Below, piece by piece: positions 4,101 through 53,082 of a stretch of 64,000 bases of DNA. The DNA lies in contig JAYWIR010000066.1 in the NCBI GenBank assembly GCA_036172245.1, positions 434,001 to 498,000 on the forward strand, read 5' to 3'. Position numbers and translations under genes: made by a program. Below the pieces are notes generated by a model. It saw only the letters and a program-made list of their open reading frames with translations. It had not been told where the DNA came from and searched no databases. The stretch is from Raillietiella orientalis (lineage: Eukaryota). The first letter of the stretch is position 1, and each line of letters opens with the position of its first letter.

Positions 4101-4590
4101 TGATACAAACGAAATAGATGTTTTGTTAGATAAAAATAAGTCTTCATCTGATGGTTTGCATGCATTTACCCACTCCAATGAAAATGACACTATGTTCCAG
4201 GAATCAACTTTGAACAGTGCTCAGAACTACATTGATATCTGCAGAATACTGTCCGATTTAAGTATTGAAACTCAAGTGCAATCAGTAGATCCTTGTAAGG
4301 ATGATATATCTAAGGAAAATATAAATGATGATAGTCAGTTCCAAGTGTGTGATCCTTTTGATACTACTCATGTTTGTCATGTACTCGAAGGGAAAGCTTC
4401 TTTAGTTTGCCTGGAAAAAAAAAAAAGTATTATTACGGATACAGATACCGTATTGGTTTCTTCGTCTCAGTCTGAGCAAGAAAGTGTATCTGATTACAGC
4501 AGACCACCATTTAAATCTGAAGAGGATTTTATTGCTTTTGAAAAGGATCCTTTTGATACATCCAGAATTGAAAAGTTATTAAATGATTAA
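1184..4590 (+). CDS. stnA: Stoned-A (AP-2-binding endocytic protein), first cistron; exons 1184-1900 and 3742-4590, ~521 aa
   Basis: The N-terminus MLKLKKRKQNKKKKEDLFDPAELEKYR and the block EEWQHFRLLTSGVDKNLSETQKNLSLIK resemble insect Stoned-A. Four DPFDT motifs are present. A phase-0 intron (ttc|gtaagt at 1901; ttttgtag|gaa at 3742) joins the two ORF-track ORFs. TAA at 4588-4590. Confidence 0.9.
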
Positions 4591-4630
4591 GCATTGCATT
4601 TGTTGAAGCAGTTAAAGTCGTGAAACAATC

Positions 4631-31100: not shown

Positions 31101-33185
31101 ATAGAATTAACGAAGAAAATGAAATACATTTATGTTTTAAGTGCAAATATGAAATCCTTGTATGTCAAACACAGGAAATCATAAAAGTAATTTTCAAATC
31201 TACTGTATTTCTGTCTTGTATATGGTAGCATCTTTTTGCTCTGTTGAAAAACTTTATTGATATTCAATTAAACCTGGGAGGCTATTGGGTGGTATCATTT
31301 TACAGTGTAGATGACTTGCCAATGAATTGCATTTACGTTTTTGTAATTGGGTGAAATTCTTGTGTAAATGCAGCAATGTTATGTTTGCATTAGGTTTTTG
31401 ACAACTATTCACGAATTCGGAAGCATATTCGATCTTTCCATAGCAATCGACATTACCCTTGCCCATTTTGCAGCAAGATATTTGTGCAGAGCGATAGACT
31501 AAAAAATCATTTGCTAAGGTATGATTTTTCTTTTTCATGTACATGATTTTTACGCATACAAAAAATGCTTCAGATTTTTCATGTATGCATTCAATTTGAA
31601 TTGTGGAGTAATTTCGAATCTTTAATTCATTCTAATATTCAGGCATTCTGATCATCGAGAATTTTTATGTGCTATTTGTGGGAAACAGTTCAAACGAAAA
31701 GACAAACTGAAAGAACATATGAAAAGACTTCACTCAGCTGAAAAAGAAGCCCAGAGAGAAATCGAGGTCACTAATCTAGAGTTCAAAAGATCACTTAGTA
31801 AGGTAAGTTTTCTTTTTTTGTCGGTTGATTTCAGTAGATGAGCGTATTCCAAGGTGTCGTCATTGGACTATCACAGGTTCATTTACAAGTGCCATTCATG
31901 TTTACTTGGTTTTAAACGCCGTGGCATGTTAGTCAACCATCTTGCTAAACGCCACCCTCATATTCAGCTTGAAAGTGTACCTGAACTCAGTTTACCCATC
32001 CTGAAAACAACTCGCGATTATTACTGTCAGTATTGTGACAAAGTGTACAAGAGTAGTTCCAAGAGAAAAGTTCACATTTTGAAAAATCACCCAGGTGCAG
32101 ATTTGCCACTAAGCAATCGCAAAGTAAAGGTATCAGTTTTAAAACGAATGATTCTATGAACTCCATGATTGCCAGAGCCATATGGAAATCCCGGGCATTC
32201 CCAACCCCTCATTTTCCCAAACAGTTGGCAGTATTTCCTTGCAACCACATGGATGTCAGTGGTGCCATCGTCAGTATGCTTCCCGTGCCAAATTATTACA
32301 GCATCAGAGGAAAAAACATGTGAATTTCTTACCTGAACTTCAACAAGTGGGAAAAATTGTTGTCTAACTACAAATAACCTCTTTGCAAACAGATTCCCCG
32401 TAGTCGGATGAAGCAGGAAGATTTTGATGTCTCTAAAGAAATCCTAAATAATACTAATAGTAACAGTAGCAGTGGTAGTAGTGTAGAAGCACCATCGCTT
32501 AAACTGGACATGCAAGGTGATGATTCTAACAACACATATCCCATTGGGCTGGAAGTAGATCCTAGCTTGCCGATTCTACCAGGTCTGTTGTAAAGTAGAT
32601 CCTTCATGAAATACGTTTATGCTACAGGTTGTTTGTCTCCAGCAAACACTGATTTAGCAGATTTTTCATCAGCACCTAAGTCCAACCCAACAACTAGCTG
32701 TGTTTACAGAGAAAATCCAATTCGTTTTATGGTTTGTAATAGACTCCATGAATGTTGCTTGTATTGTTGTGTTGTAGCTCAACTCTATATCCACACAGGA
32801 TGCTGATTTACTAACCCAAGCTATGTCAGAGTTAACACACTCCTTAGAGTTCAAAACTGTCAGTGTATGTATCAATGGAACAGAGCACTTGTTCCGTGTA
32901 TCGCCTTTGGTGCCTGTTACTGATGTCCTCGAACCATCTGAGCTCACACCTCTTAATGAGGACGATAAAAAAAATTCTTTAGATACACAGTCTTCTTTGC
33001 AAGACAATTTGGACGAAATTGACGATCATTTGTATCAGAATCAGTTAAGGCATATTCTCAGTGATACTGGCTATGAGAATTTAAACCAGGAACTGAGTGA
33101 GCTTCCATCCCAAACTTCCTGCAGCCATGCTGTTTTGTCACTGACTAGAACCACAAATGGAAATATGCCTGCATTCGTGGAGTAG
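25112..33185 (+). CDS. PRDM10: PR/SET-domain C2H2 zinc-finger transcription factor PRDM10 (start codon not fixed; candidate upstream exon ~22982-23038)
   Basis: PR/SET motifs [20 protein letters not shown] and NWILFMRP. Nine C2H2 fingers after splicing, including [22 protein letters not shown] and [25 protein letters not shown]...[38 protein letters not shown], characteristic of PRDM10. Stop TAG ends at 33185. Confidence 0.88.
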
Positions 33186-33399
33186 TCGTATATGTACGGT
33201 CCTCCCATCATGGCCTTCATATACTACACTTATATTATCTTTATTATGTACTGGGGTCTTTGGCAACCTTCTTGTTAATAAAGAGACATGACCACGCATC
33301 CTGTCTGATTGTGAATTGTGTGCTGGTGACTGGAATATGGGCCTGGAATTACGAAAAGTCCTTATCATTAATTGTGATTTGATATTTTAGTTTCTTACA

Positions 33400-36300
33400 A
33401 CAAAGGGCATGTTTACAAATGTGCAGCTCTACCTGAAGGTATGTGCCAGAAGAATTGCATGCCGGCAGCTGTTCCAAAGTGTAGCCAACATAAACACTCC
33501 TGTGTCCAAATTTTCGTGTATAACAAGTTTCCCACGTGAACGAATTCAAATATCGCAAATTTTAGGGACTAGCAATGAGTCGTTTTCCAAAGTTGCTCAA
33601 TGTGGTGCATATATATCTCCCCAAGTGACTAATATTTTATTTCAATTCCCACAATTATTGAAGGAAACCTCAAAGAGATCAACCCTCTACATATTGGATG
33701 AAAACGTAATAGGTTTGTGCACATTGGGTTCATATTTGCAGTTTGATTTTCTCTACAGAAAACATCATCCATCATCTACAGTTGGAAAGTACGAGTTCTG
33801 CTTTAATTTTAATTGCAAGTCCAGGATCCTGTGAATTACCAGCACGTTTACTTCGTTATGCAGAGATACAGATGAAATTATTCGAACCGAAGGGCTCTTT
33901 CACCGACCTGGTCATGGTATGAATTTCCCATTGATAGGATCCGTGTATGAATTTTGGGAGTGGTGGCATGCCCGGGTTCACTTTTTGTTAATAATGCTTT
34001 TGACAAAGAGCGTTGCGCGATTCGGGATCAGATCTTCACTTTCTCAACTCTTAGCTTCATGAAATTCAGTTAGGTTACAAAGTATCGTTTGTTGCCTCGT
34101 CCAAATGTTTCCTGAAAGCCGAGCAAACCCCGTCGCTGCTGGCACGTGTGTCTTGGCATTAGGGGGTTGCAGCAGTTGCGTTTTGCATACGGTTCGGTTG
34201 TTTCACCCTGTGCAAAGATTGAAGATGAAATTCCTCTGTCGCAGAATTGCACTCACAAACATGTTTCTCGTTAAAGCAATTCCAGAATGAGAATTCTCAT
34301 CGCGTCAGTGTCATAGAGGATGACTACATGAATTTTGGCAAGAGATATTATCAGGACTTTATGGATGGGGGCAGCAGGCTCGCCGAGTGGTTTGCTGGAT
34401 TTACTGGTGAATCGGAAGAAGGAGGTATTTACGTATGCTGACGCGACGTGCAGCGAAAAATTCCCCTTTGCATGATTAAAAAAAAAAAAAAAGTCATCTT
34501 GAGTTTTGGCTTAGAATTCGTTATGCACTCCGTGATACTTCTAGGTAAGCAGTGCAAACTTATAGCTGCATGTGCAACAGGAGCACGCAAATACCTTCTA
34601 AACTTGATGATGGTATTGGTAGATGAACCGTATGGGATAAAATTACACCATCTAGAACATTACCTCTTTGTCGAAGATGATTTTCTCCAGGCAAGTGTAT
34701 TTTTTTGTGACATGGTAATTGTGTGGGGTATCTTCCAGACGAACCATTCTTCATATGTTTTGATTAATGCAGGTTTTCATATTGAGTATCTTGATAAACA
34801 GCCCCACTATCGTTTTTTCCCAGTGAGAGCAAGCGGCTACTCGCGCCAGAAACCAAGGAAGAATGTAACGAGTGGAACGGCTTTTGGTTTTGTAACTCCT
34901 TCGTCATGTTTTAGAAGCCGTGCAGTGAAGAATGGTGTTTAAACCTCGTGAAGATACGATCCCGGCCAGAGTTTTTCCAGAAGTTCCACACGTGCATCGA
35001 CTTGGGCAGACTTTTTTTCTTCTCCCGTCAGTTTCTTAAGTCTCCAAATGCACTAGTGATTCCCATGCTGGAGTAAGTGGTGCAGTGCTTCAAGTGTTGG
35101 TTCCAGTGTCGAGCAGGAAGTGGTTCCCAGAGATCGGGCCCAGGCTCATCTGCCGAGGCATCTCCATGCACACCAATTTTCGCGATCTGTCACCGAGCCA
35201 ATTTGTGGACTTATATCTGCACATTGCAGCTTTGAGCGATTTCGAAAGTAGTGCGTTTGTCGAAATTGCCGACGTTTATCAGCTTCCCCATAAAGCATTT
35301 GCCAGCGCGCCGGTTTGCTGAGGGCCAGGAAGACCTCATAAGGCAATGAAGCGCATTTCACGGTTCCCGTTCCATGCGGAGGAAAAAAAACCAGCGGGAG
35401 ATCCGACGAACGTATATAAAAAGAGACTTCTCGGAAGTGTGCGTGTGTGGGCATTTTGGGTATTCCCCTTCTCGTTCGCCAAGGAGACGTTCAAGGGATC
35501 GTTTTCCTTATCGCTGGTTGGTTTCTGCAGCCTTCCACCTAGACACGGTGTTTTTCTTCTTCTTCCTGACATTCCCAGGAAGCCACAAAACTGGCTTGTT
35601 GGCTTTTATAATGCCGTGTCTTCAGAACAAGCGCCTGTTGCCGTCGAAGAACTCCGAAAAGGGCTCGCACGGTGAAGGACGCGGGCGTGAGGTGCCACAC
35701 GGCGGCGGCGGTGCGTCCTTTCTTTGGAAAAACACACGTCGGTACACTCACCGTACGAGTTGCCGACTCCCTTCTCAATGAGGTGGCTTTTCGCCCGGTC
35801 TAATTCCGATGGTGATGCACTTATTGGGGCCACAAGCATGCAGTTGCGACAGTGTGCGGAACCAAGTAGTGAAATGTAGGACGCTGCAGCCCTACGTTTC
35901 GCGCCGTTTCCACGTAAGGCTGTGATTCCACGGAAAAACGGGAGGAGTCCAAAAACTGCATGTCTTGACGTTATGTGACCCGCTTGTGCTCTGGGCTGAC
36001 ACACGAATCCGGCTAAACCATGTTCATGACGATCTAAAGGCTTTTTCACCCCCCCCCCCTCCTCTCTCTCTCCTTTTGGAATGGGGAAACCCCAGCCGCA
36101 GAACCGCGTCTGCTCGGAAAAGGAAGATGTCTAAACGTGATGAGAACGCGAGAGACCCATTCCTCGACTGTGCGCTCTCTTTGCAAGAAGAGTACGGATG
36201 GCCACGCGCCACTGTTATGCATGCCTGGAGGTGCCCAAAGCTGCTGCAAACGAGTGCGCCTGCTGCCTCGTGATTGAATGCGTGTGTACAGGACACAAGG

Positions 36301-36450
36301 GCACTCTTGACCTCTCGAAAAATTCAAGGTCCAAGTGTACAAATCAGCCGGAGGATTCTAGTTTAACGGAGGTGAGATGCACGTGTGCGCGTGCAGTACC
36401 ATTTCACGTTGTACTCAAAGTACGACTCACGCTCGTCGAAAAACGGTCAG
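33400..36450 (-). mobile_element. Long decayed L1/Tx1-like non-LTR retrotransposon (ORF1 knuckle, APE endonuclease and RT remnants)
   Basis: In the expected order on -: LVCSSFGHLQAC (gag knuckle-like, ~36240), LINVGNF...AFGDL (APE-like, ~35280-35040), VNPANHSASLL (NYRPISLL-like, ~34400), MDDVF (YADD-like, ~33770), MQFFWH (~33460). Numerous stops and frameshifts. Confidence 0.55.
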
Positions 36451-36539
36451 TAGCAACGGCCCTTCACGTCGTGAAAAGTGGTATGTTGTTATAAGACCAA
36501 AGGTCACTTTCATGGTATTGAATTGATTTCGGTTTCCAC

Positions 36540-37300
36540 GTGAACGAACCGAGCGAATCCATTGATAATTGGAAACTTTCGATCGGGGGTTCGGATTCCT
36601 GTAGCGGTCCGAGGGAGCCACGGGCGACGAAGGGGAGTTGGCAGGGAGCTACGGTGGAGGACTCCGGGCAGTGCACGAAGGCAAGGGCTTCGTACGTCGG
36701 CTACGTTGAGTCCCTTGGCCCGAGGCAGCGTGGTGGAGGTAGAGCCTGGTTCGCCCGGGAAGGTGACCCGGCTCCGAGCTCAAGGGGATCGAATGGGGTT
36801 CGATCAACCTGTTAGCGATCAGCACGACGCTCTGGAGGAGTGACCTTCCGCCGGACACCCAGGACACCCTCCTGATGTTTTATCATGGAGGAATCCAGAG
36901 CGGGTCCAGGCTCGAGCACTTCACGCGAAGACGGGAAGATGAAGACTGCACGGCATGTGGAGACACAGATACGAGACTTCGCGTCTTGACGTGTCCCACA
37001 TTGCTACATGACTGGCTGATCCTGAAAAGGATCATAGGACTCATCAAGAAGGAAATCGGCATCAGGAACTGTGGACGACTCCATGCCTGGACGTACCGAT
37101 TCATCCTGAAGAGGATTGAAGACGACGCCCGGGACCAAATATCTGGAAATCCACCCTGAAAGCACAACTTGTGATACCCCCAAGGACTTCAAAGTGATGA
37201 AGTGTGGGTATGTTGTATGAATGTGATTGTAGAATGAATGAGATTTAAAAGAAAATAAATTTACCCCACCCCTTGTGGGTTTTGGGGAAAATCGAATGGG
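36540..37300 (+). mobile_element. LINE (L1/Tx1-like) ORF2 3' fragment with zf-RVT-like Cys motif
   Basis: WRSDLPPDTQDTLLMFYHGGIQSGSRLEHF...CTACGDTDTRLRVLTC, homologous to the copy at 40946-41130. Confidence 0.65.
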
Positions 37301-38066
37301 TTCGAGGAAGTCTCTCCCTGTGGATGCCCGACGTGCAGGCGCGAAGCGTTCGCTAAGACAATACCCAAGCCAATTCGAAAGCAGTTTTTTGAGCAAACCG
37401 CTTTCCAATCTAGAATCTATCGAATGATTGTGGTTTCAACATTCCTAAAAAATCTTCAATTCTTTATTTAAGCTGCCAAGTTTTCATAAATGACACAAAT
37501 TTCACCTGGGTTGCCCCAAGGAATCATTTGTATCAAGACACAAAATAAGAATAACTACCATTAAAGTTTAAACGATCCCAAGCTCAAACAACTGAAGATA
37601 AGGAGAATTTGAAACTACTAATTTCTCGATGAGAATGACTTTGTGTTTCTTTTTTTCTTTTTTTTTTAAGAAAAAAGTCTCTTTCACATGCCAAGAAGGT
37701 GTGGCATGTTATCTTTCAGAAGCGTAGAACAAAAGGGAAGCAACAGATCCGAGGATCTCTTCGAAAAGGAAGAACCCTTAAGTAATCTCATTCTAAAAAC
37801 TTTCCCCAACGCGTTCGATTCAGGAGCTTCCGAGCATCATTTTGAGTCGAAGAAGCCGAAGCACGGCCCAAGCATTTGGCAAGCGTGGTGGCGCACTGTC
37901 GGAACGCCTCAAGGCACCACGAAGCTGTGAAGCACTGCAAGACCGATGCTGCACCGCCACGCGGAAAAGTGACGTACACGCCTTCGGCTGAATAAGTATT
38001 TATTAACGTTGGTTTCGAACAGATAAAGAAGTAAGCAAAATGCGGAGCGAAAAAGGAAATGGACGT

Positions 38067-41000
38067 CTAAGAATACATAGTGCTTTCTATCCATTCCTCC
38101 AGCTTGAAGTTTGCAACATTGCGCGCTTGGGGGTCTCTTTCCATGAAAGCCTCTGGAACCAACAACAGTTTTTCGTGTCATCCGATTTTTTAAAGGCGGT
38201 TGCGTACCCATCACCGTCTTGAGTTTCACAGCCATGCATATGAAATCGTCGAAGGTGATAATCCCATCGTGTCTTCCATAACGCATCACCAACACGTTGA
38301 GGACGGGACGGTTCAGGCGATAGCCGGCCGAATTCATCGCTCGGCGCAGCTCGAAACCGTTGAGACCACCTTTGTTCTCAGAATCGTAGATTCGGAACGC
38401 GTTCTGAAAAGGAATGATTACCTCAGCTAAGCACGTGGCCATCAGAGTCAGTGTTTACTTTCCACATCCGGATGCACTTCCAGAGCTTCTTGAACTCCCT
38501 CAGGTTCAGCTTCCCTGACTTGTCCGTATCCATCGTGGCGATCATGCTGCGACAGAGTTCCTTGCTGAATCCCTCAAATTTGAAATCTGCAAGTCGAGCG
38601 CGTCCGCGTGTCGTTCCCGATGACCTCTGTTTGTTCCCACCTACCGGTAGCGTCTTCCACTTCTGGGGGAATCCCGAAAAGAGAAAGCGTTAATCGATAT
38701 GCGGGGGGGAAGGAAAGGATGAATAATCGCAATCGGCTGCTAAGCCTCGTCACACAACATCGAACAGCAAATGCAAAGGTCGCGGGGCATTCGCGGCGCA
38801 GAACTGCAAAGGCACACATCGGCGTTGAGACCTCTTCGGCAAGGCGCACTCCACGCAGAACGTCCAGACGAAGATTTCGTGGTACAGTGCAACCGCGAAC
38901 AGAACCGTGGTACAGAACAAACGGTATTGATTACTGCTTTCTTTGGCCAGTCGTCTCTACGGCTCCAGGAAAAAAAGGGACCGCGTTGCACCCGGCACTC
39001 CAGGCCGGGTGCCACGCAGTCCGTTTTCTTTTTCTTTTTTTCGTCCTTTTCCTAAGTGACCGTCCAAGACCGCGAGGAAGAGCAGCTATTTGCTATAATC
39101 CAATACGGCAAGACGAGCGTGTGTTTCCTGTTAAGAGCTACGCGCGCATACTGCTTGTACGCAAACACAATGGCCAGTGTGTTTTCCACATAGCACACTC
39201 CTCCTCCGCAGGCACGTGTTTGACACGGCATTCTATGATGAGCCTCTAGCAGATAGTGGACAGGTGTATTCGTGTGAACGTTACGTACACACATACACAC
39301 ACACACATACTTTTTTTTTTTTTTTTTTCTAAAAAGAAAAAAAAAAAAAGGACCTTAGCGCTCCCTTTTCTTGTCTTCTACTTCATCCCCTGGTGTGTAT
39401 TCAACGTGATCCCCCGTTTGAAAGAGATTTTTTGTGTGTTCTTCCGTGCACAGGTATTCACCCCCGCATCAATGACGGGGGAGCATGGAAAACACATCGC
39501 ACAAACGGACGGCCGCTGTGAACACGAATCCGTGCTGCGCTCGGACCTTGGGCTGCTCAGAAGCGGAAACACCTTTGAGTCAACGACTTGAATATTCTGA
39601 ACGCATGAGACAGCACGGAACCAAAGCTGTTCTTGCAAACCCCCCTCGAAGTGCTGCCGACTGCTGAAGAGCCGAGGTTTGTTGAATATCAGCAGCGGCG
39701 TTGCATCTCCCCCTCCCCCATCAGAACGATCGTGTTAATCAGGCGAGGCGATGACGTCACGGAGGATGGAAAGATTCGCGGTGGTGGATAAAATGCTGTC
39801 CTAAAGTTCATCAGGTCATCTTTTGGAATACCAATCTGTCCACCGCTCGCAACTATTTGCCCTAACTCTGTGGCTGATAGTGGTGTCGCACGGGATAAAC
39901 CCTTTAACTTCTGGCCCAATTCTGCAGCTCCTTGGTTACGAGCTGCACCATCCTCAGCAAATCTTACTGCTTTCTTAACACAATCAACCACAGCACTTTC
40001 AAAGTCGACTGCCAACTTTAACCGCAGTGGAAAATGAAGCCCTGAAAGTTGAGGACGCTCAATGAAACGAAAGGTTTGGTACAGACTCGAAAAATCCATC
40101 TCCGCCTGGTTCCAAAGAGCTGCATAAAATTAAAAAATGCGAGCCCAAAAGGCAAAAGGAGTGCCAGCGGTCGAGTCGGGCCCAAGAGCAAGCGTGGCTT
40201 CCTGTTCTCCTCGGGCGCTAGGATCCCTGGCCCGAAACCCAGGTTCCACCTACGGAAGCCCTCGGGGAGATCGAGCGGCGCAGCGAACTCAGACCGGCCA
40301 ACTCCTCGCTCCAAGGTCGTCGCGACGCTCTTCAGCCCTGACTGAGGTGGCAACAGAAGCCCTCCTCCACGGCAACCGGCTTGGAACACGAGCCGGTTGC
40401 CGTGGAGGCGCGTGGGGCGACTGACCGTTCGTGCTCCACCGCGCCTTCGCAAGGCTGGTGCACGGAACCGACGACCTCATGGCGCTCACCGCGAGCGACT
40501 GGAACAAAGTGGACCCAACGTGGACACGCATCCAACGTCCCTTGTGAAAATCGTGTCCAAGGAGCAAGGAGCACTCCAAGGTTATCCCGTTGTTTCTCAG
40601 GGTCCCTTGGGAAACCGGACTGTGGATAAACAAGAACAAGATGATGACCATGGAGGAATAAGAACGACCATCGAGTAGCGCGGTTATCCACGCGCGGCGA
40701 GTCCTCGCGTACAAAAGATCGACGGAGGGGAGGGTAACCCACAGGCGCGCGAGCTTTGGCAAGACCAAGATCCTTGGTCTTGCCAAAGCTCTGTGGTCCA
40801 GGGCGAACCCCTAAACAGACAAAGTAAAAATGTCGTCCAGACGCACGTGTGACGTCAAAAGACGTCGCACCGTCCGAAGCGATGGGAAAGATGAGGGGCA
40901 GGCTACGCAACGCCGCCTCGACCCAAAAGCGATAGAAACGGCCCCGTGGAGATCCTCGTTGCCGCCGGGCATTCAGGATTGCCTCTTGATGTTCTACTAC

Positions 41001-44000
41001 AGAGGTATCCTGTGCGGCAAGAGGCTCCAACACTGGACCGGGAACCCATATCAGACCGGTGTCCAGTGTGCGGGGTCGATCGAAGACGACCTGCACAGCT
41101 ACACCTGCCGAACCCTCGTCCGGGATAGGAGAGTGGCCAGAAGGGCGGTGGGGATGAACGGCACGGCCGACGCTGGAGATACTGCGAGCACTCTTCGAAG
41201 ACAAAGATGGCATTCCCCGCTACGACCCCACCGCTGCGGGTGATCGTAGCCTTCTTCCTGAGGAGCATCCTCATCGGAAGGACCAAACTGATACATGGAC
41301 ACGTGTGCAACGACCGGGACATCCTAACAGGACTCCTGAAAAGGGAGATAAACATCCGGGCGTGCGAAAGAGTTCCATCCTGGACTCTCCTGCACTGCCT
41401 CAGGGTCCTCAACTGTGCGGCCCGGACGACATAGTGTGGCATCAGTGCGTTTCGCAACGGTGATTGGTTGCTTGGTGCAGAGTGAATGAATTTTTGAATA
41501 CATTCGACCCATCGCGAGTCGGACCGGGGAAAAGAGGAGGACTTCTGCATCGTCCCCGTCGACCTTCGAGCCCCTAGAAAAAGGGGGCAGGGAATTCCGC
41601 CCCTGACTGCCCCGGAAGCAGCACAAGTCCTCCTCCACGGCTTGGAACACGAGCCGGTTGCCGTGGAGGAAGACTAGTCCACGAGACGGTTCCTGCCCCA
41701 GAAAAACGTGGTGAACCTGCCGAGGTTTGCTGGCGATTTCGTTTCGAACAGCAAAAGTCGGATAGAAGGCGGTTCCGAGCCATCACGCTGCAACCGGAGT
41801 GGACACGCAACTGGCGCATGAAGGTGACACGGTCCACGCGGGAACATTTCCTCAAAGAGAGAGGGGGGGGGGAGGAACACGCGAAGTTCGCGAAGAAGAA
41901 GAAGAATGGGAGCAGGAACGCCCGAGGTTTCTGCTCGCACGGTGCCCAAGAAGAGGAGAACGCACTGACGCGGGAATTCGCGCGAACGGGAGCCTTCGCT
42001 CGCATGACGGGGGGAGGGCCACGGGCGGCCGTTGAGGCCTTTCGCGGATCTCCGGGCCCTCGACACGCGTAGGCTTCTTTCTTTTTTTCTTACTTTCTTT
42101 TACCTTTGGCCAAAGCGACGTCGAGGATCGTCTGCAACTCCTGCCAGTCTATCTCCAGGTCGTCTCCAGCGGCCTTGTTGAAAAGATCGGCGATCAGCTT
42201 GTCGTGTTCCTTTTCGTCCTCGATGGACTTCTCTCTCGCCTAGGTTGGACGGTGGGGAAAGGAGCGTATTCTTCCCGCTCGGAAGGGGGGATTACCCCCT
42301 CTCCTCCTCCCTCACCCCCCTACTCACCCTCTCGTCGACCTCGCCGATGCCAACGTCCTGGTCGTGCTCCCTGCAGGGCGAGAGGAATGGGTGACGGGGT
42401 GGTGAGGCCACCCTCCCGTGACTTACGCCATGGTGTTCTTCTTCTCGGAGAACACGCGCATCAGGAACTCCCCCTCCTCGTTGGGCTCGAAGGTCGACGG
42501 GACGATGCAGTAGGTGCCCGGGGGCAGGCTGAAGCGGCAGCAGACCTCCCGCAGGTTGATGAAGGACGGAGACCGCGCCACTGACGAGTTGTACTTGAAA
42601 AACTCCAGGGGGAGCGGTTTCGGCAGGCGTTCCGGGTCTTTCAGCTGTGGCAGGGGCACGAACCGGAGTGGCCTCCGAGCAAGACCCCCTCCCCCTTTAC
42701 GTGGTAAATCGCAAATCCGATGGTCAGGGTGTCCAGGCCCAGCTTTCGCATCTCGCGACGGTTCTTCTGCATGAGGGCCACGATTACCGTGCACTTCGGG
42801 TCCTCCGTCGAGTCGTCGTCGTCGGGGGACTCCAGCTCGACTCTGTACTGGGGGTTCAGCCAAAACGTGTCTAAACGAGGAGGCACAAGAGTCCCCCTCT
42901 CGACTCCAAACGCGGGGAGGAGGGGAGGAATTCCTCCCCCCGACTTTTCCTCCTTTTACCCAGGTAATTCCTGCACCCTCCTGCGGTGGAATGCGGGACC
43001 CAAGAACCCTCGAAGATGCTGGTCTCCCAACGCTTCTTTCCCGACGTGTCCAGCTCCTGCTCCAGCGAGTCCGGGTTGAGGTTGCAAATCTCGATGCGCT
43101 GGAAGTTGCCGGCGAAGTCCTTGAACGACATCCAGAACTCCCCGTCGCTGTCGAAAACCAGCCCCAGGGATTTTCTCTCGGCCGAGGGGATGAACGTCCA
43201 CTCGGGGGACCTGGCCACACAGCCGGCGTGGATGAAGCGGACCGCGGCAGCGCCCCGCCTTACTCGTCGCTCCAGGCTCCCTTCCACTCGGCCTCGTTCC
43301 CCCACGGGTTCCTGACCCGTACCAGGGGTATCTTCCCCGAGACGCGCGGGGTCTGGATGTCGGCCAGCTTGACGCTGGTGATGCTGTACGCGTGCCCTCG
43401 AATGAGGCCGTTGGGCAGCTGGGCTTCGTACACGTGCGGATCGGGCTTCACGGAAAGGGACGCTTGAGGCAGGGGAGAGAAGAGACAGGACCACGCACAT
43501 CGATAGAGCAGCCCATCAGGGACGAGCGTTCCATGCCCTTCTCCAGAATGGTGAACAGATTGGGCGGCGCCTGATCCAGCTCGTACATCTCCGTTATCCC
43601 GCCTGTGAAATCCTCCATGGCTTCGACGGTAGTTCCCCCCTTCAGGGATTCGTAGGATCCATACAATCTACGAGATCACGTGAAGTAAAAACGCGCGCAC
43701 ACAGCCAGAAGGGTGGTCAGGAAAGATACGCCGCCTGTTATCTCGGAAGCGCCAAACTTGGGAAAGCTTCGGGACGCTTGCGGTTCGGCGTTCCGGAGGA
43801 GGCTGCGAGGGTGGAGCATTCGCCGCCGTGACAACGTGGTGGAGCACGCACGCAACGACAGCAGGACCAGGGAGAAGAAAGAATACGTGTATGTACACGC
43901 ATGCACGCGCGTACGTGCGCAAAGCTCTCCTCCCTTCGTCCTGCCACGCAAGCCGGTCCGAAATCCAAAAGGAGGTTCGGACTGCTCTGGAGGAGCATCG

Positions 44001-47000
44001 CTCGGAACAGACGGGGGTCAGGAGGCACGGAGGAAAATCGCGACGACCGGAAGCGGGGCGGAACGCATCCGAAGTGCCGACGATGGTCTCGCCGACTGGA
44101 GTGGCGTCGCCGTCGGCATCATGGGGCCCACCACGCGACAGCCGTTCGCGGTGGGTGACTGCATATAAGTTTGCACCCCACCCACCCCCCGCGGAGGGCA
44201 GGCGGCGCCGCGGCGGTCCGAAGGCGACGCGCGCCAACTGCACCGACGAGGGCTACCTACTTGGCATAGGCCTTCTCCAGCAACGCCGACCAAAACTCGT
44301 CGTTCTCCGAAGAGCGCAGGAACAGCAGCTCCCCGTGACTGGTCGGGAGACGGTCATCGATGACGACGTCCACCCAGCGGCCGTACTGCCAAAACCTGGA
44401 GGAGCAAACCCGAAGACGCCCCTCGTGGGCGGGGGGCTGAAATGCGCGCAGGGGGCAGACCTGAAATGAAAGATGCCGCAGTAATCCTCGTCTTCGAAGG
44501 TCTGGTCGTCCGGGACGACTTGGTTGAATAGGGTTTTGCTGAGAGTGAGGTTGGCACAAGCAGCCAGCATCCAACAGTCACCTGGAGCACACCGCGTTTT
44601 CACGAATATCCCGACGCATCGTCGGAAAGTCCGAAACTGCCTTTACCCAATTCTCCTTGCTTCACGTCGAACCTCGACGCCCCCGCGATAAAGAACTTCG
44701 GGTTGTCCACGAGTTCCTTGCGTATGAAAAAAAAAAAAAAAAAAAAAAGTGAAGGCAGGAGGGAACAGCGGGTCACTTACTTTGGGCCTCAACCATTCTA
44801 CGCTTCTGGGAACTCTCTTGCTGAAGTAGATAGACTTATCGCAAGCTGGAAACTCTGGATCCTCAAACAAAACCTTCTCCTGGAGGCAGAAGGTTCGAAG
44901 GGTGTTGTAATCCTGAACCTCTCCTTTCAGGCGAAGTCCCGAGGCGCGCTCTCCAAACTACGGCACCACAAGAATTCCCACAGTGACGACTGTGCGGTCA
45001 CTCGGGTGCCTGCGAATCCCAAGCTCCCTGGCGACCGATTTCGCGAGCGCAGCCGTCTGACGGCAGCCGCGATGATGACCGAGACAGCGGCAAGGGGGCG
45101 AGACCGCGTGGGAGCACCGCCGCAGGAGGCCTTCCCCTGTTTTCCGAACGAGCGGCCGCTGGGCCGCGACACTTTCGCGTGGACACAGGAAGAGTGACGA
45201 GGCGGCCTGGACAGAGGAGCACGAAACGAAATCCACCCGGGGCATTTCGCACGGCAACGGAAGAGTCGCAGCAGACGCTACCGTCTGAAGGACTCGCTTC
45301 GTGAAGGCATTTCGGTGGTGCCGCTTGACTTGACCATGACGGCGACACGTTTCGACATGCGCTTCCGGCCGCTCCGTCCGACGGAAGCTGCGGAAAAAGG
45401 AGGGGCGGAAGGGAACGGCAGGGACTTCAAACCGGGCTGCAGATTCGGAAGCAGAGAGAGCCAGCCACCCCGTTTTCCTATTCTCGTCGGGATTTTCGCG
45501 GCGGGAACCACTGGAGGAGGAAAACTCATCCGAGGTTGGAATCACGAAAAAGCTTTACCGACGACACTGCATCTCAGCTCAGTCTCAAGTGCGGTAGGGG
45601 GCTGGAAGGGGGCTTCGAATTCCGCTGCCGTGCCTTGCATATACGAATCTGATCAGTTATTAACTTATAGTGCTCAGCCTTCATCTTTCCCTCTTTCCAT
45701 GATCTCAATGACAAGAACCTTCGAAAGACCGCACAAACACTTAGTTCGCCATAGTCACGGGAAGCCGGACATTTAGCGAATGGACGGGGACGTGTCCAGA
45801 AGCGAAAGAGCACCTCGGGAAGCTTTCGCCCACAAGCTCGCGGCAGCTCTTCAATAAGCTTCGAATGGCAAGTCCACACGGGTGCTCGTGACTTCGCCCA
45901 CGCCAGTTCTTTTCCGCCACTTGACCCTTAACATTCCGGCATCTTTTTCTAACGTAACTGACCAGTAGTGTCCGATAGACACACTAAAATGAAATCAATA
46001 ATGTGGAAAAAAAATTATTGTCATCATATTAGACGAGTCATGAATATTATATTACTATTTATTCAGGAAGGCATTCAGAGCAGATCATTTTTTTAGAGCT
46101 GGTTTTGGAGTGTCCTGGCATATTTTTATCGCCAAATCTTAGGAAAAGTGGAATAGACGCAAATGGATTTCTTCTCCCCGTGGTCGCACGGAATGCTGCA
46201 GTACCAAACATCGGATCCCAACACGCTCTGCCATCTCCGTTGCTCTGTATGCCAACACCAGCGGTCAACAGCAGACCCCCAAATGCTTGTAATCCGAATG
46301 TATCCATTGGTTTCCACTTCTTTCCGAATTCCCTTCCAGCTTCGGAATCGGCATCGTTGCCGAAGGAGAGCGGCGGACACCTTGGTGTTGAGGAAGTTGG
46401 CGCGTCTTCCGGTCGAAAAACAAATGGCCGCTGCCGATAGGGTCCCGAACCTCTCCCTCTGGTGGGGGAGAAACCTGACCAACTCCGACCCTGGTTCCCT
46501 CATGCCGTGGGGCTCTGCTCGTGTTTTCCGGTGCGGCTTCCCGCCGTCCTCTCCCACGTATTCTTCAGCAGACGGATTACCGCGATTATTTTCTTTTCTT
46601 CCTCTTCATTCGCATTTTCGTCACCACCACCGGACTCCGGACGCAGTTTCCGTGAAGCTACTTTCACCATCACAGGCACCATATCTCTGATGAAGTCCGC
46701 ACATCTCAGTAAATATTGATAGAATACATAAAAATCGTAACGGCACGCAACTTTCACATTATTTACTTGTAGGCTTTAACAGGTTCGAACGGGCCAATTT
46801 TTAATTATATCAAACCGTGTCCGATGGACACACCTCAGTCGTTATGCCGTATTTTTGGTAAATTACTAAAATCAAGAAAGCAATGAAAGAATTGGTAAGA
46901 TAATTTTGAAAATCAAGCAAAGAGGGTAAATTGGACAAAGCAATCTCGCAATCAAATGAATACTTTCGATTTTGCATGTAAGTCGAGTTGAAAATGTGCC

Positions 47001-49923
47001 CACCGGACACTACTGGGCTGCCAAAGGTTAATTTCCGCGTGATGGGGCAGGAAAACGCCATAAGCGCAGTGTCGTTTCGCTGAAGTGAAGAATCAAAGGC
47101 ATGCTGTTGGTTTGAAATGGCCGCAACGCTCATCAGCGAAAGAGATGGCCAGAACGAAGATGACACTTGCATTCGAGGGTGCGCCGACCAAAGCATTCAG
47201 TTCGACGCCCTCACGCCGGCCCAGCAGCACTCTGCTGCCCACGGGGGCGGCTGCATGGGGCGGCAGCGCCAGTGCAGGAGGCCACAGCGAGAGGGACGCC
47301 ATCTCCTTTGCCGTCCCCTTCTTGAGGACAGCGGCAAGATGGTCCCGTCTGAGGATTGTAACACAGGAACTCGCCGGCATCCTTACAAGGAGGCAGAGGA
47401 CACCTTCCAGCACACCGTGATCCCTTCCCGAACCCACTCCCCATTTTTTTCGTACACCTCTGCCGCCGAGGCGAACCCCGCCGGCCTGGGCGCCGGTTCT
47501 CGGCAGGTTCCTTTTTGTATATATATATGTGTGTGTGTATGTGTGTTTGTGTGCGTGTGGTCCCTCCACTGACCGACTTGTATGTTTATTTTTATAAATA
47601 AAAGCCCCGGCGTGACCGGGTGTCAAACCAACGCATCCAGCGGGCCCACAGAACCTTTGCAAGAACGAGGAAAGCGAGCAAGGGCATGCTGGACATGCAG
47701 CTTTCTTAACCTCCCCAGAAGGGTAACGTGGCGTCATACACGACACACAGCAGCAGCAGCAGCAGCAGCTAAAACGTGCAGACGCTCCGCCATGGCCCCG
47801 TGTTGCGAGCATGGCAGCTTTGCTGCCAAGTCTTCCGTGTGCCTGAGGTCGCCATGGCGTGCAGATCGGTCGGCTTTGCTTCGTTTCGTGCCCGATCGTG
47901 CCGTGTACGACACCGCGTCACCTTTCACGTTACACATAAAAATCTGCACCCGTGGTCCCTCGCAAGGAAATCCCCACGCAAAATGAAGTGGAAGGGACGC
48001 CGTGAAAGAGGAGAAACGAATCTGCAAGAGTTTCCACACGGTGAATTTCGGCTGAAACGGAAACTCGGAGGCAGAGAGGCGTGCGAGACGACAAACTTTC
48101 AGCTGATGAAAGTTTTTCATGGAATGTTAGACGGCATGAGGCGTCCAGTGCCAACAACCTTGGAAATCCAAATTATCAAGTTGGTTCCGGGAGAACGTTC
48201 CTCCAAAATTTAGGACACGCCAGCTTGTGACACCCAAGCACACGGAACGCCGCTCGCCATGCAAGAATTCGTCCCGTTCTCTGCGGACTTTCATTTCGTC
48301 TGAACTGAATAAAGAAGATCCGAGGTTCCAAGATGTTCCACGAGAGCCTCTAACCGTCCACAGGCGCTGCGAAAGGTGCCCACGTTCCGCCAGCCGCGGT
48401 GGACGGGAAAAAGTGCACCTGTTGCACAAAGGTCACATGCGCCCAATACCGGAGGGCTTCACGTTGTGGATGTGCAAACAACTTATGAAATAATTCGTAA
48501 AGATAATTGCAATTCATTAAGAAAATAAAATGCTTATTATGAAATGGTTACAATTTTAATCGGCGCCCCCTACGTGACACCACGTAACCATTTATGTACC
48601 GAATTTTAACCGATTCTGGGTTGAGAGCGGCCAGCTTCCGAATCCTACCGATTGAAGAGGAGATTCACTGCGTCACGAACACTGCGTCACGTTCCGGAGA
48701 CGCAGCTTTGGTCGAGAACAACCAACCGAACGGACTGCCACCCATCCTGTTCCCTTCGTGGGCAATGAAGGGACCTACTGACCAGGAAAGGTGCCGATAA
48801 AAAAAAGCGCCTGCGGACTTTCCGCTTCAGCTTGGCACCGTGGACCAAGGTGCGAGCATGGCGTTCCAGCGCGGCCAAGTAACACAAACCACCAGCAACC
48901 AACCACCGCAGGCGCAGTGCCCCTCCCATCGGCCACGATACGGACACGGAGCAAAGATGGATCCAAAGGCAAACAGGACGGGGGGACCGACGCTTGGCAG
49001 GGAAACCGTACGCGCACGAACAACTTTCGAACAAGTAAACAAACGCGATGTACAGGGAAGGCCTCAGCTCCCGCAACGGATGAAATGAACGCAAGAACGG
49101 AGTTCCAAACTCCGATTGCATGCTCGGACTGAAAGCGTCCGCATTCAAAAATTCAAAAAACGGCGTTCGTACCTTGTAGACGCTGCGGCCCTCATTTTTG
49201 ATGTTGCCAAAACGCCGACCTGGATACATGGGTCTCAGGAACGGGAATTTGTAGGTAAAGTCTTCAATGAGTCTCCCAGTTAACAGGGAAAGGCCTCCGC
49301 CTTGTCCGGAGCCAATGAGCTGGCTTGCGAGAGTCGCCACCCCAGTGCCAACCAACTGTTGCGCCAAAGATTTTTTGACATTGGGATCGCCAATGATGTC
49401 TTGACTGTCGTCCTGAGTGCTCAGCACTTGTTGAGCTAGAGCCGATATAATGGCCTGACCAGGTGTTCCCGCTTTTTGACCGAATATTCCCTGGGCGATG
49501 TTGGCCAAGAGGTTGTTGCTTTTCCCGTCCTTTTTCTCTTGTCCTTGGTTCGACTTGTTCAAGTAGTCGGAGAGCATCCCGACGAAAGGGGTCATCTTTC
49601 CGATAAAGTCGCCCATCCCACCTGCATTGGAAGCTCCCGGGTTCGGGTTGTAACCGGGCGGAGGGTAGTAGCCTCCGGGTGCTGGGCCGTAACCGGGAGC
49701 TGGGCCGTAGCCAGGCGCCGGGGCATAGCCTGGTGCCGGGCCGTAACCTGGCGCTGGAGCATAGCCTGGTGCCGGGCCGTAACCAGGCCCCGGGGCATAA
49801 CCGGGTGCTGGCCCATAATTAGCGGCGGGAGGGTACCCGGGAGCCGGTGGCTGGCTAGGTGCTCTGCTGCCATCGTCGACAAAGGCTCCAATGATGTCAC
49901 CGATGCCAGCTCCCTTGGGATCC
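38067..49923 (-). CDS. Classical calpain (CalpA/CalpB type): Pro/Gly/Tyr-rich N-terminus, CysPc, domain III, penta-EF hand. Exons 49923-49173, 44957-44781, 44716-44647, 44581-44461, 44395-44261, 43667-43499, 43445-43264, 43210-42960, 42870-42701, 42644-42427, 42370-42328, 42239-42104, 38586-38459, 38403-38208, 38152-38067; initiator exon upstream not identified
   Basis: Intact catalytic triad: QGELGDCW, GHAYS, RNPWG. Also [52 protein letters not shown] and EF-hands DTDKSGKL and DSENKGGL. All junctions are GT-AG and frame-consistent. Ends [10 protein letters not shown]. Confidence 0.95.
39794..40030 (-). pseudogene. Fragment resembling a phage tail tape-measure protein (TP901-family / PhageMin_Tail core) inside a calpain intron
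   Basis: [21 protein letters not shown]...[40 protein letters not shown] matches the recalled pattern AIDFESAMADV.KVV.F...LSR.IPLSA.ELAQIAASGGQLGI....L..F. Locally lower GC than the flanking LINE DNA. Confidence 0.75.
40100..42060 (+). mobile_element. Two adjacent decayed L1/Tx1-like LINE ORF2 fragments in a calpain intron (antisense to calpain)
   Basis: [30 protein letters not shown]...[14 protein letters not shown]. The segment near 40340-40410 recurs near 41603-41669. KERGGG (GGLG-like) at ~41860. Confidence 0.6.
45949..47031 (-). mobile_element. Internally deleted piggyBac-like DNA transposon relic
   Basis: Inverted repeats ccagtagtgtccgatagacaca (45962-45983) and tgtgcccaccggacactactgg (46995-47016), 19/22 match. 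TTAA at 47028-47031 and CTAA at 45949-45952. Internal repeat gtgtccgatggacaca at ~46817. On -: an acidic stretch, a frameshifted KP...DYK-HLG/AVDR (DYN..MGGVD-like) and terminal CSEC. Confidence 0.55.
47900..48500 (+). mobile_element. Decayed LINE ORF2 fragment
   Basis: RLKRKLGG (GGLG-like) followed downstream by RCERCP. Weak. Confidence 0.35.
49675..49818 (-). repeat. Coding 18-bp tandem repeat (~8 units) encoding [12 protein letters not shown] in the calpain N-terminus
   Basis: In frame with [57 protein letters not shown]. Confidence 0.85.
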
Positions 49924-51021
49924 CTATGTCAAGTACCACAATGACGAAACCGCAGAGAATGGCCCTGCTTTCTTTTTTTGTTTTTCTTTAAAGACAAGAA
50001 CATCAAAAAAATTTCACTTGAAATGCTTATATTTTTAAAAGAGCTGACATGGCATGGAGTAAAACGGGGAAAAGAAAGAAGGAAGGAAAAAAAAAAAAAA
50101 ATCCCGACTAAGAACAAGCCCGTTTCGACAGAACGTGAGAAGGAACATCAGGCTGGAATTCAGTAAGAAAAGCGACATTTCGCAGGATCAAAGATTGCAC
50201 GAGATGGGTGCTCTCGGTATGAAAATCAGCATCAGCAGCGCAGAGGCGCGCCCGACTTTTCATGCAACTGAAGCTCAAGCATCATTCATCTCCCGTCTGC
50301 CGTAACCCTTTTGGCTTTCCTTTCATTTTCTACAGGGCGACGTTTCTACAAAGTCACAAAGACAAGGCCTTGGGTCGCTTACCAACACACAGCGATGATG
50401 ATCGTGCACGCGTGCACGTGCACACGATCCTCCTGCTTCCACGCATCTTCCGCTTATGGATTCATTTTTCGAGAGTCCCGGTCTCAACCGAAAAAGCTCC
50501 CCAGAGAAAGCTTTTCCGGTTATTCACGATTCGAAACGCATAATCCTAATGTTTGATTACAATGTACATTTTTTCTACAGGTCAATCGAAAGCTGAAATA
50601 CACGAACACGTAAACGTACGGTCGTGTACGTCTAGAAATGTATTTCGTTTCTCTCTCTCTCTCTTTCTTCCTTCTTCCTACGTGACCTCGCCCCAAATCA
50701 CCCATTTCTAACGAATCAATCACACTGCACCAACTACAGAATCAACCGTACATTTAAAAACCCCAATCTGAAATTTCATCTGACGACAGCCCGTTGCCAA
50801 CGGCGAGAAGAAAGCAACGCAAAAACAAAAACAAACGATGGATACCACTAGGGTAATTGTCTTGCAGATCTGTTCTGCAGGTGATCACATCCAGCATCTG
50901 GAACAGAGTTGTCATGACGCGATGCGAGCACTGCTGCGATAGCGAGATGAATTGAGCGGAAGAGCATACTGAGGTATCCTCGTGATGGAACGCGCGCCAA
51001 GGGATGCCGGCGGAAAATCTC

Positions 51022-51055
<34 letters not shown>

Positions 51056-51349
51056 CTGCGTGTGTGTGTGTGTATATTACAAAGTAAGCACGATAAGTAC
51101 GTAAGTGTAGCGATGAAACCTTGAACAGCACGCAAATAGGTTCGAACGAATCGACGAACCGCGCCTACGTGGGCAAAGGGAAAACAAATGATTTCCTGCA
51201 CCAAGGAAGGAGCTTCAGATTATAATGCGGAAATCGATTCGAGAAACAAAAACCACACCAGCTCGTCAATCATACTCCCCCAACGAAATCAACAAGACAC
51301 CTGAAAGTGAGTAATGAACGAGTCCTGTCCTGCCCGAAACCCTTCGAAA

Positions 51350-52300
51350 CGAAGACAAGGGAAAGTACCGAAATGGCCATCCCGTAAGTCCGAACGAGTA
51401 ACCTGGATACCAATCATCCTACTCGATGGATGCTCCGATCCCACAAGAAGAACACTCTGTGGCAAACTGAACGGAACGAGAGGGCTCTTCCAAAAATCGG
51501 TGGGCGTATTGGAATCTCTCAACGCGTGTCCGCCAAGCAAGCGGTGCACACCTTCGTTCTCGCCTAGAAGAAATGATAAACACCTTGGTGTGGTAAGTAC
51601 GATAATTTATCTGTGGTGGAACGACTGCAATACAGGACCTGGTCCGTCGTACTTGATGGCAGAGGAACAAGAAAGCGCAATTTCTGAAATCTGTCGGGCG
51701 CACGGAAGAACGCTGGAACATTCCACCCTCTATACACTCCACGCAAACACTTTCCCTGGATCCTCAATTCCTTCGATGGACTTCGGGCACACAGAATCAC
51801 CCGAAGTGATCGTGGAAAGGAGGAGGAAGGTGCAGTACCGGCGAAGGCCTCGTCTGGGAAGGAGCAAGAGAAGAGCGGCTGAAGGCACGGCTTGAAGGTT
51901 CTCTGCTGGTGGACAGCAAGGCATCCCGCGGTTCTTCGATTCACACCGCAAATCCACGCAGCTTCATCTGCACGCTCCGTCTCAAAAAACGACAGAAAGG
52001 CACAACAGGAAAAAAAGGAAGGCCACTTGCGAATCGGGAGAAACCCGTGCCCTGACGACAACTGTCATCGTAAGAGTGCTGGGCAAACTGAATGAAGGTC
52101 AAGGCATGGTATGAAATTCCTGACCGGAGGGCATAGCTGAACTCCAGCCGAGACCACCGGAAATGGTGCGTTTCGATTCACGAGACTAATACGAAACCAC
52201 CACATAATGCCCTGATTTATGCGGTCGGAAAACCACGGAAACGCCGCAGCAGGTCATTTGGAGTCATCCTCAGCTGAAGAGAAACACGTCCAGTTACTGA
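51350..52300 (+). mobile_element. Decayed LINE reverse-transcriptase fragment
   Basis: GKLNG...DKHLGVV (KYLG-like)...HGRTL, in the order expected at the end of RT. Weak. Confidence 0.35.

Positions 52301-53051: not shown

Positions 53052-53082
<31 letters not shown>

Follow-up and report, generated by a model that had tools for sequence, protein, structure and literature searches.

A probable non-functional Wolbachia insert, composed of tape-measure and transposase fragments, in a calpain intron of Raillietiella orientalis

The calpain gene and the intron holding the insert

The window analyzed here is a stretch of 64,000 nucleotides from Raillietiella orientalis. An arthropod calpain-A/B gene occupies positions 38070..44957 on the minus strand, where named arthropod calpain-A/B proteins aligned by tblastn to 12 coding segments running from 44957 down to 38070. 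Of 26 frames tested, 5 carried Pfam calpain domains, all on the minus strand: Peptidase_C2 (three frames), Calpain_III and EF-hand. The conserved calpain exon is 77–84% identical to insect calpain-A/B. Over the whole gene the identity is 53–60%, alike for Hymenoptera, a flea, a collembolan and a scorpion, with no close relative among the named matches.

The sequence of interest lies in one intron of this gene, at 38587..42103 on the minus strand (3517 nt, GT...AG, phase 1). The preceding exon ends at 42104, directly before GTAAAAG; TTGCAG leads up to the next exon, which begins at 38586, and the phase-1 junction restores a D codon. These boundaries agree with an earlier note on this DNA, which had placed a stop-free stretch in a 3.5 kb calpain intron between 42104 and 38586. 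Orthologues aligned by tblastn to the flanking exons at 42221–42111 and 38572/38587–38456, and a permissive search with the linker regions of nine orthologues found no coding exon within the 3517-nt intron. Neither the Rfam scan nor the tRNA scan of the window gave a match.

A Wolbachia-derived block of about 400 bp is located inside the intron at about 39794–40191. Nucleotide searches gave matches in 26 of 60 Wolbachia genomes, all inside window positions 39794–40181. The rest of the window, compared with five Wolbachia genomes, showed no match apart from a poly-T run; a 27-nt perfect Wolbachia match at 51024–51050 and 53055–53081 was rejected as this poly-T/poly-A run. In the assembly the insert has non-Wolbachia sequence on either side, between the calpain exons ending at 42104 and starting at 38586, its contiguity with the host flanks resting on one assembly. 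GC content is 0.45–0.47 over 39800–40099 versus 0.605–0.67 over 40100–40499, and the fragment is thus lower in GC than the adjoining DNA, as had been noticed. Sequence comparison resolves the block into what we take to be two unrelated donor pieces lying head to head, a 250 bp tape-measure piece on the minus strand and an IS66 transposase piece of about 150–165 bp on the plus strand.

The tape-measure piece

The larger piece, at 39794..40043 on the minus strand, was assigned to a phage WO (TP901-family) tail tape-measure gene by blastn and Smith–Waterman alignment to wStri, by TIGR01760, by a WO HMM and by a tree. Nucleotide homology to the wStri copy, as determined by blastn and Smith–Waterman alignment, covers 250 nt from 40043 to 39794 and is sharp at both ends. 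The fragment had been delimited previously as 39794–40030, of which the start is retained while the end moves to 40043. It consists of 82 codons without a stop, carries one 3-nt in-frame insertion (an extra Cys codon) and corresponds to approximately amino acids 100–182 of the 732-aa WOVitA protein (KX522565 gwv_1111). The stop-free minus-strand peptide quoted in the earlier note was found where it had been placed, inside a 146-codon frame at 39689..40129.

The resemblance to TP901-family and phage WO tape measures that had been proposed for this peptide was confirmed by profile and protein searches. TIGR01760 (tape_meas_TP901) matched with 32.0 bits against a cut-off of 28.8 (E 6.5e-8, profile positions 12–79 of 349). 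PF10145 reached 16.6 bits, below its gathering score of 33.2, because only profile positions 2–38 of 201 are present; of the PhageMin_Tail and tree checks proposed earlier, the Pfam model thus fell short while the tree nests the fragment in WO, as described below. An HMM made from 11 WO-clade proteins matched one of 2477 six-frame window pieces (E 1.6e-26, spanning amino acids 30–111 of the 146-codon frame), the runner-up being at E 0.79. Searching 50,697 phage records with tblastn returned 133 matching records. The best three were WOVitA/WOVitB (66.7% identity, residues 4–78, E 7e-25), followed by other WO records at 50–57% and then P2-like phages at 39–46%. All seven PHROG families matched were tape-measure families (best E 2.1e-8).

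The rest of a WO tail module was looked for in the form of chaperones gpG/GT upstream and gpU/X/D downstream of the tape measure, and none of the other six WO tail-module proteins matched the window (best E 0.088). The 82 matching codons compare with about 700–800 aa in WO, and the piece is best regarded as a gene fragment, not a member gene of the TP901 family. Relative to the WOVitA tape measure, with which it shares 64–67% amino acid and 77–78% nucleotide identity over the homologous region and falls in the same clade, the insert has about 11% of the gene, is without the neighboring tail genes and has replacements at clade-invariant residues. With so little of the gene and with invariant residues replaced, it cannot serve as a tape measure.

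The IS66 piece and the junction

The second piece, at 40030..40181 on the plus strand, is a fragment of a Wolbachia IS66-family transposase comprising its leucine-zipper N-terminus, with one in-frame stop. Comparison of window positions 32001–52000 with five genomes by blastn matched 40030–40136 to genome G003 at 753 kb, with 74% identity over 107 nt (E 9.5e-11), and IS66 DNA matches reached E values as low as 3e-15. By tblastn, 40030–40158 on the plus strand aligned with amino acids 35–77 of a 460-aa transposase (58% over 43 aa, E 6.3e-9), the in-frame stop sitting in the window sequence. Local alignments start at 40014 or 40030 and end at 40181–40192. The reference open reading frame, L093:1399-2781, matched DDE_Tnp_IS66 (PF03050) with E 2.2e-30 and NF033517 with 277.5 bits. 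Positions 40066–40221 on the plus strand gave no Pfam match, and neither catalytic model, DDE_Tnp_IS66 or NF033517, was detected there, since the piece covers amino acids 35–77 and lies upstream of the NF033517 range (amino acids 82–459 of the reference).

IS66 copies are multiple in G007, G051, G044 and other Wolbachia genomes and are 72–78% identical to the window. Their N-terminal leucine-zipper region is recognizably homologous to the insert, which differs from them in having about 10% of the transposase and in being without the zinc finger, the DDE domain and the IS ends. Lacking the DDE domain and IS ends and carrying a stop, the piece cannot be mobile. Its recognition also changes the reading of the adjoining sequence. 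The earlier note had suggested capture beside LINE fragments starting at ~40100; the first ~150 nt given that label belong to the IS66 transposase N-terminus (about 40030–40181), which leaves capture next to a LINE unsupported.

Both alignments reach into a junction zone at 40014..40043, so that the breakpoint between the two Wolbachia-derived pieces can be placed only to within that zone. Near 40013–40039 there is a possible pair of compensating 1-nt indels, an ambiguous observation, as this zone overlaps the IS66 alignment. The tape-measure/IS66 junction was found in none of the 60 Wolbachia genomes searched, where no match covered both pieces; the composite could therefore date from the donor or from integration. 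The composite makeup of the insert is new here, whereas nuclear Wolbachia insertion itself is a well-known kind of transfer.

Donor lineage

HMMER searches with the tape-measure fragment gave 142 matches at E ≤ 1e-3 among 1.84 billion representatives, mostly of tape-measure length and with 33–54% identity. The best representative was P0001 (61% identity), a 182-aa entry labelled Trichonephila clavata that is 69% identical to WOVitA. Word-indexed protein searches with the fragment returned no match. When one genome per prokaryote species was scanned by alignment, 95 relatives were confirmed; the 27 best of the 80 loci kept comprised 24 from Wolbachia, two from Candidatus Mesenet and one from a 'Rickettsiales' MAG, with a maximum of 65% amino acid identity. 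A pattern scan of genome contigs yielded 386 stretches, none of which was confirmed.

Several candidates from these searches were set aside. P0002 (7 matched stretches) and P0006 (5) are repeat proteins of the OmpA-like type whose resemblance is due to chance. P0053 is of WOMel type, 57% identical to P0001 and 60% identical to the window fragment over 47 aa. Since both sequences stop close to one residue, a single ancestral insertion was considered for the two; it was rejected on the type of P0053, on these identities and on its unrelated flanks.

In a tree of 89 rows and 78 columns, few columns for a fragment with a long branch, the fragment fell in a 9-row clade with WOVitA, WOVitB, four wStri copies, a Cantharis Wolbachia and P0001 (UFBoot 99/SH-aLRT 98). 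This clade is nested in a 13-row set (98/83) of Wolbachia rows, phage WO records and P0001, and an earlier 65-row tree agrees (SH-aLRT 91). Across the whole 250 nt, the best nucleotide identity among the 60 Wolbachia genomes was 78%; on this comparison none of the sampled Wolbachia represents the donor lineage.

Identities of this order, 78% for nucleotides and 65–67% for amino acids at best, would be explained if the donor had been another intracellular bacterium, for example one of the Anaplasmataceae/Rickettsiales, with a WO-like prophage and IS66, and Candidatus Mesenet and the Rickettsiales MAG do have related tape-measure genes. The fragment is nested within Wolbachia diversity, however, and not outside it, the two Mesenet copies are placed elsewhere in the 89-row tree, and relaxed constraint accounts for the long branch. 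We consider such a donor very unlikely. The locus is instead very probably a non-functional nuclear Wolbachia insert ('nuwt') of ~400 bp, composite in makeup, within the intron of an arthropod calpain-A/B gene. A short nuclear insertion from an endosymbiont prophage, as had been proposed from the letters alone, is the best-supported reading, given the predominance of Wolbachia among the best loci and the position in the tree.

Decay of the fragment and age of the insert

The terminal branch of the fragment in the 89-row tree is 0.51 against a median of 0.085. A set of 31 codons does not vary among 11 WO genes; the fragment differs there by 13 replacements and 9 silent changes, giving a branch-specific pN of 0.18 and pS of 0.42, with a ratio of 0.44 rather than 1. 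Changes from AT to GC outnumber those from GC to AT by 13 to 6, and GC3 is 35% versus 18–24% in WO. On these counts, constraint on the fragment has been strongly relaxed over a span of roughly 0.2 substitutions per site.

Pairwise dN/dS against WO genes is 0.24–0.31 (0.15–0.33 among intact WO genes), and differences from WOVitA are distributed 12/12/32 by codon position. A reading of little decay since insertion, drawn from these two results, was overturned by the branch-specific test on invariant codons. The pairwise ratios and the branch ratio of 0.44 do indicate that part of the divergence arose under constraint, which counts against pure neutral drift. Part of the silent divergence may predate the transfer, and the constrained divergence may have arisen in the unsampled donor or, less likely, in the host.

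Taken together, the 78% identity, the 13 replacements, the 3-nt insertion and the rise in GC3 from 22% to 35% suggest that the insert is old and in decay, not a fresh transfer, and that its donor is unsampled. Neutral rates of the Drosophila type are about 0.01 per site per million years, from which the age of the insert would be, by rough inference, of the order of 10–20 million years.

The same features bear on the possibility of an assembly artefact, in which a chimeric read or contig join put symbiont DNA into a host contig. Symbiont reads are frequent in arthropod sequencing data, which makes such a join conceivable. Nevertheless, a contaminating read would be expected to resemble an intact, AT-rich symbiont gene. 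The block here is only about 400 bp long with non-Wolbachia sequence on both sides within one intron, its divergence from every one of the 60 Wolbachia genomes searched is 22% or more, and its GC3 has moved toward the local host composition. It also has the features of a pseudogene, namely the stop, the 3-nt insertion and the 13 replacements at invariant codons. We regard an artefact as less likely still than a donor other than Wolbachia.

The open frame and possible co-option

The 146-codon stop-to-stop frame that holds the tape-measure piece (39689..40129, minus strand) is not a gene. Its ends are non-homologous read-through, and amino acids 30–111 alone match the WO HMM. The simulated probability of finding no stop was 0.19–0.35 at 15–25% substitution. 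Stretches of 146 or more codons without a stop number 31 in 35001–50000 and are common in the GC-rich zone. Given this chance of survival and the comparable frames nearby, the open frame is no evidence of function.

The tape-measure piece could instead have been exonised or otherwise co-opted, for example as an alternative cassette exon in the variable linker that joins calpain domain III to the EF-hand domain. The piece shares the orientation of calpain, and its frame is compatible with the splice phase, entering and leaving in phase 1. On the edge of the insert, at 40041, lies an acceptor-like site, CTCAACTTTCAG, and 47 AG...GT pairs yield stop-free in-frame cassettes. In addition, the roughly 50-aa linker that orthologues have between the two exons was not found in the window, and the branch pN/pS of 0.44 is below 1. 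Phase compatibility, however, has a 1-in-3 chance, any open frame would be expected to offer many AG/GT pairs, and the candidate donor sites are weak by eye. An open frame survived by chance in 19–35% of simulations. Residues invariant in all WO proteins have been freely replaced, nothing similar beyond ordinary tape-measure proteins was found among the 1.84 billion representatives, and the silent excess in pN/pS is inflated by AT-to-GC pressure on AT-rich third positions. Co-option is given a lower probability than an artefact. In its most specific form, the piece would act as an alternative in-frame cassette exon and give calpain a linker of phage origin between domain III and the penta-EF-hand domain. 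This form would explain the kept open frame and the sub-neutral pN/pS and would mean that a segment of a phage structural protein is expressed within an animal protease, and it is the least probable of the readings weighed here. No function is indicated for the nuclear Wolbachia insert, which is probably functionless.

Origin and comparison with known transfers

Under the most likely mechanism, DNA would have been released from a Wolbachia in the germline that had both a WO prophage and copies of IS66. This DNA could then have been captured as a double-strand break in a chromosome was repaired, with the two pieces being ligated together at capture unless the donor locus had already been rearranged by an IS. 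Neutral drift afterwards would have left the replacements at invariant residues, the 3-nt insertion, the stop in the transposase and the shift of GC toward the surroundings.

A comparable process is known for NUMTs, organelle DNA captured at double-strand breaks. Like the present insert, these are short, non-functional and intronic, are made of non-contiguous donor pieces and have been proposed to arise by end-joining capture. The donor here differs in being an endosymbiont with prophage and IS, not an organelle.

Nuclear Wolbachia transfers were reportedly surveyed by Dunning Hotopp et al. in 2007. According to two reports, Wolbachia-to-host transfers are detected in about 20–33% of arthropod genome projects (PMC4299567, PMC3798261). 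Nuwts are described from arthropods and nematodes, examples being Drosophila ananassae, Brugia malayi and ant HGT loci (PMC4299567, PMC3849323, PMC3798261, PMC13320244). For ants, Wolbachia is named as the source of 79% of 497 HGT loci, with transposases among the transferred Wolbachia genes and >30% divergence from the nearest Wolbachia match noted (PMC13320244). The top literature matches make no mention of a tape-measure fragment, which describes those matches and is not a claim of absence.

The insert shares with nuwts that Wolbachia DNA is embedded among host genes, that prophage and transposase genes are represented, and that the DNA is non-coding and in decay, with divergence from all donors sampled. 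Its very small size (about 400 bp) sets it apart from them, as do its composite makeup, from two unlinked donor loci placed in opposite orientation, and its position, in the assembly, within the intron of a conserved housekeeping-type gene.

As read here, the insert would be a small molecular fossil of a past Wolbachia infection, recording a WOVitA-type phage WO lineage and an IS66 element absent from the sampled Wolbachia. If it proved common to related species, it would set a minimum age for the Wolbachia association. It leaves the understanding of how such transfers happen unchanged. Very short composite symbiont inserts of this kind may hide in the introns of conserved genes, which is relevant to contamination filters and to surveys of horizontal transfer.

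GC-rich sequence adjoining the insert

The insert is adjoined by GC-rich (56–67%) intronic sequence at 40192..41700, which has no Pfam domain and no Wolbachia match. Reverse transcriptase or endonuclease Pfam domains were found in none of six minus-strand frames (E ≤ 0.01) and none of ten plus-strand frames (E ≤ 10) within 40021–42089; the plus-strand test comprised 12 frames, of which the other two lie at 38584–39591. Neither such a domain nor repeat copies of the kind expected of a LINE were found in this flank. One Atlas cluster with zf-RVT was returned for 40815–41243 on the plus strand with a score of 0.95 and a recognition value of 2134, below the threshold of 2300, and a second Atlas query of the flank gave no match. 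As a weak lead, 40192..41700 may be a decayed retroelement. Comparison of the intron with the window itself revealed a 32-nt perfect direct repeat, at 40377–40408 and 41638–41669, within a 76-nt repeat at 79%; beyond the 76-nt repeat the matches were short and of low complexity, and no transposable-element family could be defined from them.

Prophage WO copies and transposases in Wolbachia and phage WO sequences

In the Wolbachia genome from Laodelphax striatellus (G001), the tape-measure piece of the calpain intron (39794-40043, minus strand) has at least eight DNA-level matches, belonging to at least three sequence types, which implies that many WO prophage copies or fragments are carried by this single genome. 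The tail module of deposited WO records has transposase genes as immediate neighbours or within it. In WOVitB (HQ906666), a shortened tape-measure CDS is followed immediately by an ISSod13 transposase, and in WOVitA a transposase is located upstream of gpG. Given this arrangement, it is plausible that the donor tape-measure gene was disrupted by an insertion sequence.

Related tape-measure sequences elsewhere

Two proteins similar to the window fragment were considered. P0053 is a 146-residue ORF from a Logan contig of 1313 bp. About 55 of its residues correspond to the WOMel-type tape-measure core, and the sequence on both sides is unrelated and junk-like. The point where the homology stops differs by no more than about two codons from that in the window fragment (...DLFNFTE in P0053 vs ...DLMNFRT). 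P0053 may represent a separate insert, nuclear or decayed, in a different organism.

P0001 (GFQ65504.1; 182 residues, on a contig of 26,948 bp) is annotated as a 'tail tape measure protein' of the spider Trichonephila clavata. It consists of a WO-type N-terminus with 69% identity to WOVitA, and derives either from a symbiont contig within the spider assembly or from another nuclear insert.

The calpain intron and its surroundings

Calpain orthologues possess a variable linker of about 50 residues between the exons that flank the intron at 38587-42103 (e.g. residues 620-671 of the orthologue P0236). No counterpart of this linker was detectable within the window; therefore, the gene may be without a linker, or may encode it in a micro-exon that has diverged past recognition.

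The GC content changes sharply, from 33.8% in positions 1-35000 to 54.1% over the calpain region (35001-50000). For the long plus-strand frames at 1112-1969, 3742-4587 and 4616-5770, the Pfam search gave only one weak match, to DUF4931_N, which was under the cut-off. The GC-rich part of the calpain intron (40192-41700) contains a direct repeat of 76 nt (40336-40408 and 41601-41669; 79% identity), the two copies of which are spaced 1261 nt apart. Its core is a perfect 32-nt repeat, CGGCTTGGAACACGAGCCGGTTGCCGTGGAGG, that includes a hairpin-like palindrome.
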